In this document: positions 14,652 through 50,322 of the stretch, piece by piece
Numbering within the stretch: the first letter of the stretch is position 1
Layout: each line of letters starts with the position of its first letter
Made by a program: the position numbers and the translations under genes
Virus record (IMG/VR): IMGVR_UViG_3300050494_000042
From: a virus
Strand: one strand, 5' to 3'
DNA length: 64,000 bases
Notes under the pieces: model-generated
What the model saw: the letters and a program-made list of their open reading frames with translations, nothing else
Told to the model about the DNA's origin: nothing
Database searches by the model: none

Positions 14652-16660
14652 TTTCGTGCTCCTGTCGCAAGAACGGTGTCTATCAACGAAGGTGCCCGAT
14701 TGAGTTCCTGCTCCGACGCTAACTTCTCGTCTATTTCCTTGAGTGGAATCACGGACATTCGGCAGTAGGTATCGTCCACTCCAAGAGAAATGAACAGATT
14801 GCTTCCGTGAACCACAGCCCCACCAGGCCAGCAAACGAACCGCTTCACCACGTTGTCATTGTCTTTGCTGTCTGGCCAAAGCAAAGGAGTTGGTGTCTGT
14901 CTCCAGACATTGAACGGTGGTTCGGGATTGAATGCCACACAGCCAGCGGAATACACACTGCCTTGCAGACGCTTCCGGCACCCGTGTACAATTGACCACA
15001 TCTCGTAACGCTGTTCCTTCTCACTCCACACTTTGATCGGGGACGCTCCACCTCGAATGACCCCACCTGCCCAGGGCAACTTGTTCGGAGTACGCCACGT
15101 CTGGCGGTCGGACATCACGATCATTTCCGGCTTGTGTGCGTAAACCCAGTGAATTTTCCCGTTGTGCTCCCACGCGACCCAGTTCTTCTCATACTTGTTA
15201 GAATTTGGTGACTCGAATACGAAGGTGTCCTCGATGCTTTTAAGGTCATCTGCGAACCGGACGTATCCGACCTGCACCAGCTTCGGGGGATACCCGTCCG
15301 GCAAACTGAATGAAGCGTGGAGTCTGCCTTCGTACAGAAACAGTCGGGGGTCTTCGAGTCGGGTGGCCTGAGCGTGTTTCGATGCCAGCGAGGATACAGC
15401 CGTCACAGACCATTCCCCAAGCCAGTCTTCCTGGGTGTTCTGCAACACCCAAATTCCAGTACGGCTATGACCCCAACTGTCCCGCGTGGCGAGGATCAAT
15501 TGCCCCCGATACTCTGCCACCGAACAATTAAAGTGTCCGTCCGGAACGGGAAGTCGAGTTCTTTCTACGTCAGGTGTCACGAACTGTCGGTATTCACACG
15601 TCTCGCAGGATCGCACAGGAACGTCGGCTTCCTTGATTTTGGCCCCCACCTTCGTGAAGCAGTGATCTCCGTAACGACCACACTTCGCCAGAGGTATCGT
15701 CCTTCCCCCTTCCAGGACACCGATTTCGTTGCTCCACTCCGACCGGTACATACAGGGAAGTGGGTCCGAATATTGGAGTATCACCTGATCCATCTCCGGG
15801 GTGATGTGAAGAGGATCTTGAATCTCCCGTCCCGTCAGGAGTGCCTGGACGTCCCCGTGGTGCCTGCTCTCCGTGACACCGAGGGGTAACGATGGTTCGC
15901 TGCTACTAACCCGCTGCGATGGGTCTGGGGCAGTTCGTGTGACATTTCCATCGGAATTAACCCCCGATAGTGGGTTGTCGCTAACGTCGATACAGGATGG
16001 TGCCCATTCCGGTTTCCCGGTGCCTGCGTAGTCGAATGTTCGCTGCGTTACAATGGACGGGAGGACCGCACACCAGTTCAAAAGTCCCTTCTTCAGGACA
16101 CGTTCCCAGAGTTGCTGATCCAGGTTCCGGTGTGCCGCCCGCATGTGCTCCAGAAGAACCGGGAGAGCACGTCTGCGGAGCATAATGGCGTGTGTGCCGA
16201 AAGGTTCGTTTAGTCTGCACAGACGCGAATCAGGCAATCCAATGCGTTCCGTCACCTTGTTCCAGCAATTAGGCTGCACTTCTGCGGAGCCGAGAAACAC
16301 CAGATCCCACTCCGGGAAGTCGGAATAGAGTTGGCGTTGGAGCAGTTCCAGTTCAGTGTGGTAGTTCTCAGGGAGGGAGACGTCGTCCTCGAAGATGATG
16401 TATTCGTGATTGTCGCGATGAACCCACTCCTGACCCGACAACCAGATGTGCTGCCAGAGATTCCACGTCGAAAGGTTGAGAGAGACGTGACCAGACGGCA
16501 GGTGCTTTCCCGGCTCGTATTCGAGTGTGGTGGAAAGTCCCCAAGTACGTCCGTGGCTGGCCTTCCAGTACGTCGCGTCAATCCCCCGCTCTGCAAGGTG
16601 TTCCTTGCAGGCTTGGGTTCGTTCGGGAAGCTCTTCGCAGTGAATCACATAATACTTCAC
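14648..16660 (-). CDS. Glycosyltransferase family 25-like domain fused to a GH130-like/beta-propeller glycosidase domain
   Basis: N-terminus YVIHC..ERT, GHVSL, YIIFEDD, GTHA; C-terminus LEDPRL, EKNWV, RGGASP, YSAG, WPGG. Confidence 0.6.
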   Translation of the reverse strand: MKYYVIHCEELPERTQACKEHLAERGIDATYWKASHGRTWGLSTTLEYEPGKHLPSGHVSLNLSTWNLWQHIWLSGQEWVHRDNHEYIIFEDDVSLPENYHTELELLQRQLYSDFPEWDLVFLGSAEVQPNCWNKVTERIGLPDSRLCRLNEPFGTHAIMLRRRALPVLLEHMRAAHRNLDQQLWERVLKKGLLNWCAVLPSIVTQRTFDYAGTGKPEWAPSCIDVSDNPLSGVNSDGNVTRTAPDPSQRVSSSEPSLPLGVTESRHHGDVQALLTGREIQDPLHITPEMDQVILQYSDPLPCMYRSEWSNEIGVLEGGRTIPLAKCGRYGDHCFTKVGAKIKEADVPVRSCETCEYRQFVTPDVERTRLPVPDGHFNCSVAEYRGQLILATRDSWGHSRTGIWVLQNTQEDWLGEWSVTAVSSLASKHAQATRLEDPRLFLYEGRLHASFSLPDGYPPKLVQVGYVRFADDLKSIEDTFVFESPNSNKYEKNWVAWEHNGKIHWVYAHKPEMIVMSDRQTWRTPNKLPWAGGVIRGGASPIKVWSEKEQRYEMWSIVHGCRKRLQGSVYSAGCVAFNPEPPFNVWRQTPTPLLWPDSKDNDNVVKRFVCWPGGAVVHGSNLFISLGVDDTYCRMSVIPLKEIDEKLASEQELNRAPSLIDTVLATGARK
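15896..15931 (-). repeat. Repeat variant embedded in frame in the interdomain linker
   Basis: GACCCATCGCAGCGGGTTAGTAGCAGCGAA, nearly identical to the copy in the cas12m leader. Confidence 0.7.
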
Positions 16661-16661
16661 T

Positions 16662-17528
16662 TCACACCCTCGATGGTCCTGTTGCCGTTCCAATGACCCA
16701 ATCAAGTGAACTCGAATGTCCCGCAGGAACTGCCCGCCCCTCAATGTCTGAAGTGATTGGATCATTGTGTCGAATCGGAGCCGGTCCCGCATCCAGTGTG
16801 TCCACACCCTGACCGCCTGAATTCAATCGCACGTCAACCATCGGCGGCAGGCACTCAAATTCAATCCCTGGCCACACGTCGCAAGTATAGTGATCGAGTT
16901 TGCCCTGTACGGGAACCATCGGGCGGAAACTATCCCAACCACGCACACGGAAGTACTCAGAATAGGGAAACGGACGAGACTCGAAGAACTCTCGCACGTT
17001 CGTGTGCTGAAGTGCATTCTCCCCAATCGGGAAACCGGAGTGCGTAGTCAGCTTCACCTTCTGAATTGGCTGTGCGGTATCCGGACAGGGGGAAAACAGC
17101 CCCTCATGACCACAGTCCCGCTTATTTGGATGCCACACCAACTGATCCGCGTGCTTGAGGAAGTCTTCGGCTGAGCAGGTTACGTGCGATATGAAACCAC
17201 GAGTGAATTCCCACTTGTTTGGCACCAATAAAACAAATGGACGCATACTCTCCCACAGCTTATCAGTCAACTCCCGCTCGCGGTCACGAAGACCAGGCAA
17301 TCTCGCCTTCTCGTCACACACAGAACAGTGAATTACACAGCAACTCGCGTCATCGTGCGATGCTGCGTATTCAATCTTCGCCAACTCTACCTGCACACGA
17401 ATAAACTCTGCTCGCTCCGACTGACCATGCTCCTCGTACCAGTCCGCCATCGCCAGACGCACCGAATCCTCATCCGGATTGGTGATGATGGATCGCAGGA
17501 GTAGATTAAAGTCGTTCATATTATTCAA
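16662..17528 (-). CDS. TIGR02996-domain protein
   Basis: LLRSIITNPDEDSVRLAMADWYEEHGQSERAEFIRVQVEL, FTRGF. Confidence 0.8.
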   Translation of the reverse strand: MNNMNDFNLLLRSIITNPDEDSVRLAMADWYEEHGQSERAEFIRVQVELAKIEYAASHDDASCCVIHCSVCDEKARLPGLRDRERELTDKLWESMRPFVLLVPNKWEFTRGFISHVTCSAEDFLKHADQLVWHPNKRDCGHEGLFSPCPDTAQPIQKVKLTTHSGFPIGENALQHTNVREFFESRPFPYSEYFRVRGWDSFRPMVPVQGKLDHYTCDVWPGIEFECLPPMVDVRLNSGGQGVDTLDAGPAPIRHNDPITSDIEGRAVPAGHSSSLDWVIGTATGPSRV

Positions 17529-49061: not shown

Positions 49062-49062
49062 A

Positions 49063-50322
49063 TTAAACGGAACCGTATTTTTTTCTTTTCTTGGCTCCGG
49101 GTTGAGGAGTCTTGCCCCTCCCATTCAGGAAATGCCCCCACTTGCCCGCGTAGGGACCACGAGTCACCTTCTTCTTCCAGACGTACAAGCCATACACCAT
49201 CCGCAGTCGGGTGGGGACGTGGTTGTTGACGGTGTGGGTCAGGGACTTCTCAGTCTTCTTCGGAAACTTGAGTCCCAGAAGCCTGACAAGCTGTGCCTTC
49301 GTGACGCAGGAATCCTTCTGCCCTGCCTCTTTCAGAATACGAACGATTTCGTAGGCCACCCCTTTGGTCGGTACAGGGAGGGGGCTGGCGTCGTAGTGAG
49401 CCACCATCTCATCCCAGGTCATGTCCTTGTTGCCGACACGGTAGACACCCTTCTTCCGCTTCTTCGCCTTCAGTGGTTTGCGGCGGACGTACTTCCGCTT
49501 CGGTTTGGGCTGTGGGGGTGGGATGAGAAGTTCCGGCTCTGTGCAGGTGCCTGAGAACAGTTCATTGATCTCGTCATCGAATTCTGTCTCGATTTCCTCG
49601 ATGACACGATCGACCTCTTCATCGGGGGCTTCAATCACGGAAACCGCTGGATCACGGTTAATATTCAAATTCGTATCCAGCAGTCCTTCCACCCCACTCG
49701 CCCGTTCTTCGCTCCTATCAACCGGGAGCAATCGGTCTGATTCAACCGTCCCTGAAAGAGGAGGAGTCTCCACGACATTCGACCCGTCGTGGTGGGTTTG
49801 AAGAGGAGTTGGTTCCAGTGGAGTGTCCCCCTCCTCCAAAAGATCGGGGATGCCATTCACGACACTGTCACCACTTTCCAAAGCAACGTGATCTTCCGAA
49901 CCATCGGAATTCACCAGAACAACTTCCACAGTCGCCGGGGGAGCTTGGGATTCCCGAACTTCTGGCTCGACGTCGTCAACCACTTCCACCGTCCCTCCTC
50001 CAAATTGATGAGCGTAAATCTTATCGTAAAGGTCCAAATCGTCCTGGGACGACTTCAAGGACTCCACCTGTTCCGGTGATTCCAGGAACTTGGTAATTCC
50101 CGTTCCCTCGTTCACGCGAACGGACAGCTTGCCCACTGGCCACGATCCTGCGTCGGGGACTCCGATGGTTCCCAGAAGTTTCACCAGTTCTGAACGAGAT
50201 ACCAACATCGCTTGCCTTTTGTCGTGACCACGCCGAAGCCGTGTTACGGCAACTAACCCGCCGCAATGGGGTACTAGTATCCTACCCTGTAATACACATA
50301 AGGCAAATTCATTTCGAGTCAC
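49063..50322 (-). CDS. Hypothetical protein (acidic middle, basic C-terminal possible DNA-binding part); real start probably near 50208
   Basis: Long ORF whose annotated 5' end overlaps a promoter and a repeat. Confidence 0.6.
   Translation of the reverse strand: MTRNEFALCVLQGRILVPHCGGLVAVTRLRRGHDKRQAMLVSRSELVKLLGTIGVPDAGSWPVGKLSVRVNEGTGITKFLESPEQVESLKSSQDDLDLYDKIYAHQFGGGTVEVVDDVEPEVRESQAPPATVEVVLVNSDGSEDHVALESGDSVVNGIPDLLEEGDTPLEPTPLQTHHDGSNVVETPPLSGTVESDRLLPVDRSEERASGVEGLLDTNLNINRDPAVSVIEAPDEEVDRVIEEIETEFDDEINELFSGTCTEPELLIPPPQPKPKRKYVRRKPLKAKKRKKGVYRVGNKDMTWDEMVAHYDASPLPVPTKGVAYEIVRILKEAGQKDSCVTKAQLVRLLGLKFPKKTEKSLTHTVNNHVPTRLRMVYGLYVWKKKVTRGPYAGKWGHFLNGRGKTPQPGAKKRKKYGSV
49708..49743 (-). 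repeat. Variant-C repeat embedded in frame
   Basis: CAGACCGATTGCTCCCGGTTGATAGGAG versus ATCCGATTGCTCCCGGTTTGTAGGAG at 54.5 kb. Confidence 0.65.
50245..50306 (-). promoter_or_regulatory. Promoter followed by a degenerate repeat
   Basis: TTGCCT-N16-TAGGAT, then CCCCATTGCGGCGGGTTAGTTGCC. Confidence 0.6.

Follow-up and report, generated by a model that had tools for sequence, protein, structure and literature searches.

Copies of a CRISPR repeat inside three genes of a Cas12m-encoding phage: putative mRNA handles for the phage's own effector

The 64,000-nucleotide (nt) stretch analysed here (the window), from virus record IMGVR_UViG_3300050494_000042, is 64 kb out of the ≈104-kb phage contig ena:ERZ27257633:k141_2715945, from a rhizosphere metagenome. 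It encodes a homolog of the CRISPR effector Cas12m together with a repeat array. Copies of the array repeat also occur outside the array, five of them within the open reading frames (ORFs) of three genes: a glycosyltransferase–glycosidase fusion (GT-GH; site 1), a giant gene (site 2) and the gene for protein P0005 (site 3). These copies are real, lie in real genes, have an RNA structure that is under selection and co-occur with cas12m. Judging from the aligned sequences, they are kept for this RNA structure at the expense of the encoded peptide. Two of them are found at the same spots in a related phage (the sister phage) with matching pair swaps, and are thus better explained as RNA signals than as accidents; the in-ORF copies are probably working signals on messages. 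The most likely reading, to which we give a probability of about one half, is that they are putative mRNA sites at which Cas12m would reduce or split the messages of the three genes.

The effector and its array are adjacent on the minus strand, which carries nearly all genes of the window:

11021-12925, minus strand: cas12m, 634 amino acids (aa), a Cas12m homolog that matches PDB 23vw at E 2e-43.
10424-10898, minus strand: CRISPR array with 7 repeats of 36 nt, directly 3' of cas12m and the source of the repeat consensus.

The array repeat is of type V-M (Cas12m), and the cognate effector and array are both in the phage genome. When aligned to 23vw, the phage protein has Ala at both the RuvC-I and the RuvC-III Asp positions (VALGW versus IDLGW and AVNAA versus DYNAA). 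The sister phage has an ortholog that is 68% identical. No host array with this phage's repeat was found in the genome contig collection; exact and degenerate repeat patterns had no match in the viral, genome or metagenome contig collections, and megablast and tblastn gave no match in the phage collection. A related-locus search with P0001, the site-1 protein, also gave no match, and an Rfam scan of the window returned tRNA-Arg only.

The original prediction had singled out three 36-nt stretches, at 15896-15931, 27613-27648 and 49708-49743, read in frame as PSQRVSSS, MPIPVQRVSSCN and DRLLPVDR, respectively, and had taken them either for dual-coded sites of mRNA cleavage, able to divide or destabilise the transcripts, or for junctions of once separate genes that merged when a stop was lost. 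All three do read in frame in this way, and each is a minus-strand (gene-sense) copy of the 36-nt repeat from the array at 10424-10898. A covariance model from which all in-ORF copies had been left out (R2) scored them at 33.6 bits (E 2e-6), 46.4 bits (E 1e-9) and 28.4 bits (E 4e-5), respectively, and gave 19.4 and 16.3 bits to two additional in-ORF copies, at 49769-49804 and 15947-15982. For two of the genes the mechanically derived ORF started too far 5'; the genes on record run from 16660 to 14648 and from 50208 to 49063. The codon signal is positive on both flanks of each of the three sites.

A covariance model of the whole family (R1) found 31 repeat copies in the window, 7 in the array and 24 dispersed, with 30/31 on the gene-sense strand; we state the dispersed sense-strand handle set as at least 24. 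On the gene strand, the repeat folds into a handle in which a helix of 3 base pairs (bp), positions 9-11 with 20-22, is interlaced with a 6-7-bp stem, 13-19 with 29-35, forming a pseudoknot. Across 29 copies, 92% of the cells were paired and two-sided changes were seen in 8 of the 10 pairs. This pairing was matched by 0 of 500 shuffles, and slid controls were paired at 24-48%. The G-U pairs fit only if the folded strand is the gene strand. The pseudoknot helix is retained in each of the five in-ORF copies, along with 6-7 stem pairs, and conservation is confined to the mature-handle part of the repeat, positions 9-36.

With genes as called on record, junctions between genes hold 19 of the 24 dispersed copies, in a region whose non-coding share is ≈5% (gaps summed from the same calls); from this excess it follows that the copies are excluded from ordinary coding sequence. 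The typical junction module is a pair of copies, the first of which overlaps the upstream stop, and often supplies it, while the second ends 15-35 nt 5' of the next start. The stems of paired copies are always unlike. When the canonical repeat is read on the gene strand, only frame 1 is free of stops: frame 2 meets a TAA at the 5' end, and frame 3 runs into TAG TAG in the loop. Four of the five in-ORF copies are read in frame 1, and the fifth is in frame 2 and has lost the TAA. In-ORF copies are found only in segments under low constraint, namely an interdomain linker (site 1), an acidic linker (site 3) and a new N-terminal extension (site 2).

Among the dispersed copies between 5685 and 55082 and those of the sister-phage loci L005 and L007, at least three classes of stem can be told apart. 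One of them, which combines a CCG/CGG pseudoknot with a CTCC/GGAG-type stem, is nearly identical in both phages, and the array-type repeats differ between them (CCC/GGG here versus GCC/GGC in the sister phage). The shared CCG/CGG class may reflect another binding partner, or may be a layer of copies that arose earlier. The sole plus-strand copy (2810-2845) matches the one at 30601-30636 at 36/36 nt. Its start is 8 nt past the ATG of a called 100-aa plus-strand gene (2802-3104) that is antisense to its neighbours, and it is therefore another copy within a called ORF.

The features at site 1 are:

14648-16660, minus strand: GT-GH gene (gene call), 670 aa, with a glucosyltransferase-like N-domain and a GH130-like, β-rich C-domain.
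15947-15982, minus strand: site 1 copy 1, the weaker copy; frame 1, reads SDNPLSGVNSDG; 15 nt before copy 2.
15896-15931, minus strand: site 1 copy 2; frame 1, reads APDPSQRVSSSE, residues 293-304 of the mechanical ORF.

Of the description of this gene as a glycosyltransferase and a glycosidase with the repeat in the linker between them, the linker position held up, while the domain names are weakly supported (phrog_2835, glucosyltransferase, E 3e-5; Pfam GH130, 23 bits with a cut-off of 26 bits). The two copies together span residues 276-304 of the mechanical ORF, inside a variable linker segment. An AlphaFold model of P0001 was poor overall (mean predicted local distance difference test score, pLDDT, of 57) and was used only to show that residues 248-361, which have pLDDT <50, are unstructured; the copies are predicted to lie in a disordered interdomain linker. 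Copy 1 has 7/7 stem pairs and an intact CCC/GGG pseudoknot (32.5 bits with R1). The sister-phage ortholog (L007:11792-13840; 682 aa, 62% identical end to end) contains a stretch, L007:12524-12559, that aligns to copy 2. There, 7/7 stem pairs are kept with different letters, and the pseudoknot is GCC/GGC, the type of the sister-phage array, versus CCC/GGG in this phage. In ≈90% identical relatives from metagenome runs X6 and X7, the 15896-15931 copy has 1 change.

The 27 nt directly 3' of this copy (15869-15895) occupy the guide position of a CRISPR RNA (crRNA). They differ at 12/27 positions in X6/X7, with compensating 1-nt indels, and the following 85 nt have no listed change in X7.

With their unlike stems and spacings of 15 and 25 nt, the in-ORF pairs resemble the junction modules, which raises the question of whether such a pair was once a two-copy module between two genes that were subsequently fused by stop loss. 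Stand-alone homologs of both GT-GH domains do exist (N-domain, P0011, 241 aa; C-domain, P0009, 319 aa). However, the closest homologs are already fused. These were the best matches of an exhaustive profile search, P0006 (673 aa, 49% identity in one stretch over residues 52-718) and P0007 (635 aa), and the fusion is found in relatives at 47-62% identity. The gene for another relative, P0008, is immediately followed by a 218-aa gene, and this relative may be split inside the GH domain rather than at the linker. In the locus of P0006 (L002), the GT-GH gene is followed by small genes and then the portal gene, with cas12m absent in between, and no repeat copy was found in the 22-kb locus, nor in the GT-GH linker itself. 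Since GT-GH is fused in this repeat-free relative, the fusion predates the repeats, and a lost stop does not apply. In the L007 alignment, moreover, conserved parts of the linker extend on both sides of the site-1 copies. An origin from former junctions is thus quite improbable overall and, from the alignments, largely refuted for sites 1 and 3, the P0005 ortholog also being one gene.

The features at site 3 are:

49063-50208, minus strand: P0005 gene (on record), 381 aa, with a small N-domain, a long acidic linker that holds both copies, and a basic C-domain.
50243-50278, minus strand: leader copy, 38.3 bits with R2; ends 34 nt before the ATG at 50208.
49769-49804, minus strand: site 3 copy 1, family D13; frame 2, 5' TAA absent; 25 nt before copy 2.
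49708-49743, minus strand: site 3 copy 2, CCG/CGG class; frame 1, reads ESDRLLPVDRSE.

The leader copy is inside the mechanical ORF only, outside the P0005 gene, and a leader copy is found at the matching position in the sister phage (L005:1727-1762). The P0005 ortholog of the sister phage is a single 316-aa gene with an N-domain that is 32% and a C-domain that is 49% identical. In the same acidic linker it has an in-frame copy (L005:2188-2223), which at 34 bits is the top match of that locus. Where 49708-49743 has C-G as the two top pairs of the stem, this copy has G-C, and these flips alter the peptide (Pro to Gly and Arg to Thr). After the site-3 copy, P0005 has ≈60 extra residues relative to the sister phage.

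Homologs of two of the three genes thus keep a copy at the nucleotide level, whereas its loss there would have counted against the original prediction. The sister-phage copies, the swapped stem pairs and the relative without a copy together support the part of the original prediction that took the stretches for dual-coded elements, which encode protein and a conserved RNA structure. The other part, fusion of former junctions by stop loss, found no support at sites 1 and 3, where the relatives are already fused (P0006 and P0007) or have a single gene (the sister phage).

The features at site 2 are:

21823-27723, minus strand: giant gene (on record), 1966 aa, with TIGR02996 modules.
27649-27723, minus strand: codons 1-25 of the giant gene, which duplicate ≈27480-27560 in diverged form.
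27613-27648, minus strand: site 2 handle copy; frame 1, reads MPIPVQRVSSCN, residues 26-37 of the giant protein.

The site-2 copy is near-canonical, with positions 7-36 identical to the array repeat. Alignments of both DNA and protein place the duplicate of codons 1-25 ≈160 nt downstream, and the in-frame codon score is 0.48. The duplicate and the copy together make up an N-terminal extension of ≈55 aa that has no counterpart in the sister phage. The sequence looks like a duplicated 5' end of the gene, with the repeat between the halves and kept in frame. As a candidate former junction, site 2 does adjoin a gene junction, but this arrangement of a duplicated 5' end plus a repeat does not suggest a lost stop.

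Over-extended or wrongly joined ORFs, with the copies actually being intergenic or in leaders, are a very improbable explanation for the whole set. The mechanical ORFs of cas12m, P0002 and 19842 do run through leader copies, and site 2 has in-frame alternative starts at ATG 27648, inside the copy, and at GTG 27612, directly 3' of it. However, no Shine-Dalgarno motif precedes 27612, and the start at 27723 is favoured by the overlap of its GTG with the TGA of terS (GTGA), by a GGAG 8 nt upstream and by the codon score of the first 25 codons. The sister-phage giant gene has the same 4-nt overlap with terS, and its protein also begins VN. At sites 1 and 3, there is homologous protein on both sides of the copies, in one frame. 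Mis-annotation is accordingly possible for site 2 only, and even there we consider it likely that the copy is translated. The called start of the sister-phage terS is a GTG within a copy (L005:19935-19970, equivalent to L003:9989-10024), and the ATG 9 nt past this copy looks like the true one. Gene callers are thus seen to read through the repeat in its stop-free frame, which bears on the same concern.

The copies might alternatively have a role at the level of DNA, as recombination or module boundaries that are hot spots for the swap or insertion of segments. Lineage-specific sequence does start at the copies, as seen in the 12/27 nt that differ after 15896 in X6/X7, the ≈60 residues added after the site-3 copy and the duplicated 5' end around the site-2 copy, and assemblies break or mis-join at them; the contig of the X7 relative stops inside the site-2 copy. 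Such a role is unlikely, given the orientation of 30/31 copies in the gene sense, the G-U pairs that fit only the gene strand, and the restriction of conservation to positions 9-36. Furthermore, the unlike stems of paired copies would lower recombination between them.

If the copies are instead sites for Cas12m, each mRNA handle would serve as a binding site for the phage's RuvC-dead effector, which would cut the message just upstream of the handle in a RuvC-independent manner, as in pre-crRNA, or would alternatively sit on the handle as a roadblock. As Cas12m rises, full-length GT-GH, giant protein and P0005 would be reduced, or their messages would be split between domains. Cleavage at the copies is plausible by analogy because the published processing is RuvC-independent, so that a RuvC-dead protein could still bind, and perhaps cut, messages. 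Copies are present in both examined phages of this cas12m lineage, and the site-1 copy is absent from the L002 interval, which lacks cas12m. A tentative extension of the same analogy, in which we have less confidence, is that the phage has repurposed Cas12m as a guide-free, RNA-binding regulator that cuts or blocks its own mRNAs between domains for timed control.

Several observations weigh against a regulatory function of the in-ORF copies. Translating ribosomes would melt the handle. Outside the array there is no conservation of repeat positions 1-8, which are close to where processing is published to occur. For most copies, the folding energy of the single sequence is about that of shuffles (z of -0.1 to -2.3); because these energies are not significant, the case for the structure rests on covariation. 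The 15896-15931 copy has one A-A mismatch mid-stem, and its counterpart L007:12524-12559 scores only 7.8 bits because its loop has diverged, and may be decaying. The copies at 15947-15982 and 49769-49804 are lineage-specific, the former having no counterpart in the sister-phage linker, and no copy was found at the orthologous sister-phage place of site 2, making that copy lineage-specific as well. Finally, L010 and L011, more distant Cas12m phages with arrays of their own, have hardly any dispersed copies in the 10-kb flanks; this makes dispersal a feature of this clade and not general to Cas12m. (L010 and L011 are not syntenic with the window and provided no orthologs of the three genes.)

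Some of these points would suit copies that are neutral passengers, spread by recombination or aberrant insertion and surviving idly in genes wherever the peptide is tolerated. All in-ORF copies are in low-constraint segments and open frames, each abuts lineage-specific sequence, and the sister phage lacks both the site-2 copy and the second copies at sites 1 and 3, while the stem mismatch at 15896 and the decayed loop of L007:12524 are what idle copies might show. On the other hand, passengers would not readily account for orthologous retention across 32-62% protein identity with two-sided stem changes that alter amino acids, for a pseudoknot type that tracks each phage's own array, or for a site-1 copy that is conserved against its hypervariable flanks. 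We therefore regard neutral passengers as possible but rather unlikely, and prefer selected RNA signals that are putative Cas12m sites.

Other functions were sought in the sequence next to the copies. No guide acting in trans was apparent: none of the 18-mers after any copy matched, with ≤3 mismatches, beyond chance in the 64-kb window or in the relatives' loci (L002, L005 and L007). The spacers between paired copies (10-25 nt) had longest exact matches of 9-11 nt, which is the chance level. Self-targeting was set aside, as the flank of each would-be protospacer is the purine-rich repeat end, versus the T/C-rich protospacer-adjacent motif published for Cas12m. A pseudoknot-driven -1 frameshift ending at the loop TAG was rejected, as the 30 nt upstream of each in-ORF copy contained no zero-frame slippery heptamer X XXY YYZ. 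Selfish palindromes like repetitive extragenic palindromic (REP) sequences or miniature inverted-repeat transposable elements (MITE) were also discarded, since the copies are repeat-derived and non-exhaustive Pfam scans of 23 proteins revealed no transposase.

A recurring motif that ends in AAAGGCAAAT on the plus strand, or AATTTGCC on the gene strand, was found at 12988-13021, 20076-20109, 42761-42788, 49037-49064 and 55490-55523. This possible promoter element of the phage lies immediately 5' of the array leader and of some of the repeat copies.

Elsewhere in the window, Pfam scans identified, among others, a Mu-type portal protein, a small terminase, a family A polymerase, and RecA/UvsX-like, gp32-like, clamp loader and ThyX proteins. 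The portal protein (1066 aa; 6342-9542, minus strand) matches PF07737, the family of the anthrax lethal factor N/C-terminal domain, over residues 973-1060 of its C-terminal region (E 1.5e-7). TIGR02996 domains, with a YADWLEE-type motif, occur in the giant protein and in several smaller phage proteins (21823-27723, 16662-17519 and 53928-54485; E 6e-28, 8e-18 and 1e-14, respectively). The motif is encoded at about a dozen places in the window, which include the direct-repeat families D6, D7 and D10. We take this domain to be typical of Gemmata-like Planctomycetota, which would be a hint at the phage host. In the product of the ThyX gene (40810-42879, minus strand), the Thy1 domain is preceded by a LAGLIDADG-like domain (residues 351-426), possibly an intein or a homing-endonuclease insertion. 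A 615-aa protein (3101-4948, minus strand) has a catalytic segment like that of PI3/PI4 kinases (PF00454, E 2e-11).

The phage repeat resembles known type V-M repeats in being 36 nt long, with a 3' part consisting of a pseudoknot and a stem that ends just before the guide. In MmCas12m2 (PDB 8HHL/8HIO), the crRNA scaffold is likewise a pseudoknot plus a stem (PMC10442227). Cas12m binds this scaffold and cuts the pre-crRNA just upstream of it, independently of RuvC (PMC10442227, PMC11013384); GoCas12m and MsCas12m (PMC11013384) are further Cas12m comparison proteins. Known Cas12m effectors are DNA binders without DNA cutting, and the phage protein matches one structure, 23vw. Unlike type V-M crRNAs, the phage copies are single or paired outside the array, within coding sequence, and translated, and they have no usable guide on their 3' side, where the sequence matches nothing tested. 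A 2026 preprint on a myxophage Cas12m calls it the first in any phage and makes no mention of dispersed repeats.

CRISPR-repeat mimics that phages carry outside an array, known as Racrs (RNA anti-CRISPRs) or solitary repeat units (SRUs), have until now been examined in the form of intergenic small RNAs. A Racr is an intergenic, non-coding small RNA that has its own promoter and traps host Cas proteins, and the search that identified them masked ORFs and took intragenic matches as probable false positives (PMC10651486). Like Racrs, the copies described here are phage-borne and lie outside the array. Unlike Racrs, the five copies are inside genes on record, in mRNAs, with no small RNA of their own, and the cognate Cas12m and array are encoded by the phage itself, whereas Racrs mimic the system of a host. 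Handle copies within genes were not described in the literature that we searched. These in-gene copies provide the cleanest evidence for selection on the handle itself, because stem pairs have changed on both sides despite the amino-acid change, and because the site-1 pseudoknot follows the phage's own array.

Shmakov et al. (2023, PMC10120712) proposed effector binding for mini-arrays and for repeat-like units (SRUs) conserved near type V effector genes such as cas12a; both are intergenic, in cas loci. The spacers of regulatory mini-arrays partly match cas or cargo promoters (PMC10120712). The phage pairs resemble mini-arrays in being degenerate repeat pairs with a short spacer (15 nt at site 1 and 25 nt at site 3), and differ in lying in non-cas ORFs, with spacers that match nothing beyond chance.

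There is precedent for a phage protein that binds a small RNA structure on phage messages and tunes expression as the protein accumulates, as seen with T4 RegA, gp32 and the MS2 coat protein hairpin. Those translational operators are located at ribosome-binding sites and are recognised by proteins other than CRISPR effectors. The phage handle copies, in contrast, are mid-ORF, and their proposed binder is a CRISPR effector. If this proposal is true, a CRISPR effector would be a sequence- and structure-specific mRNA regulator of about two dozen phage genes, which would be a new job for class 2 effectors and a natural precedent for the engineered embedding of Cas12 handles in mRNAs.

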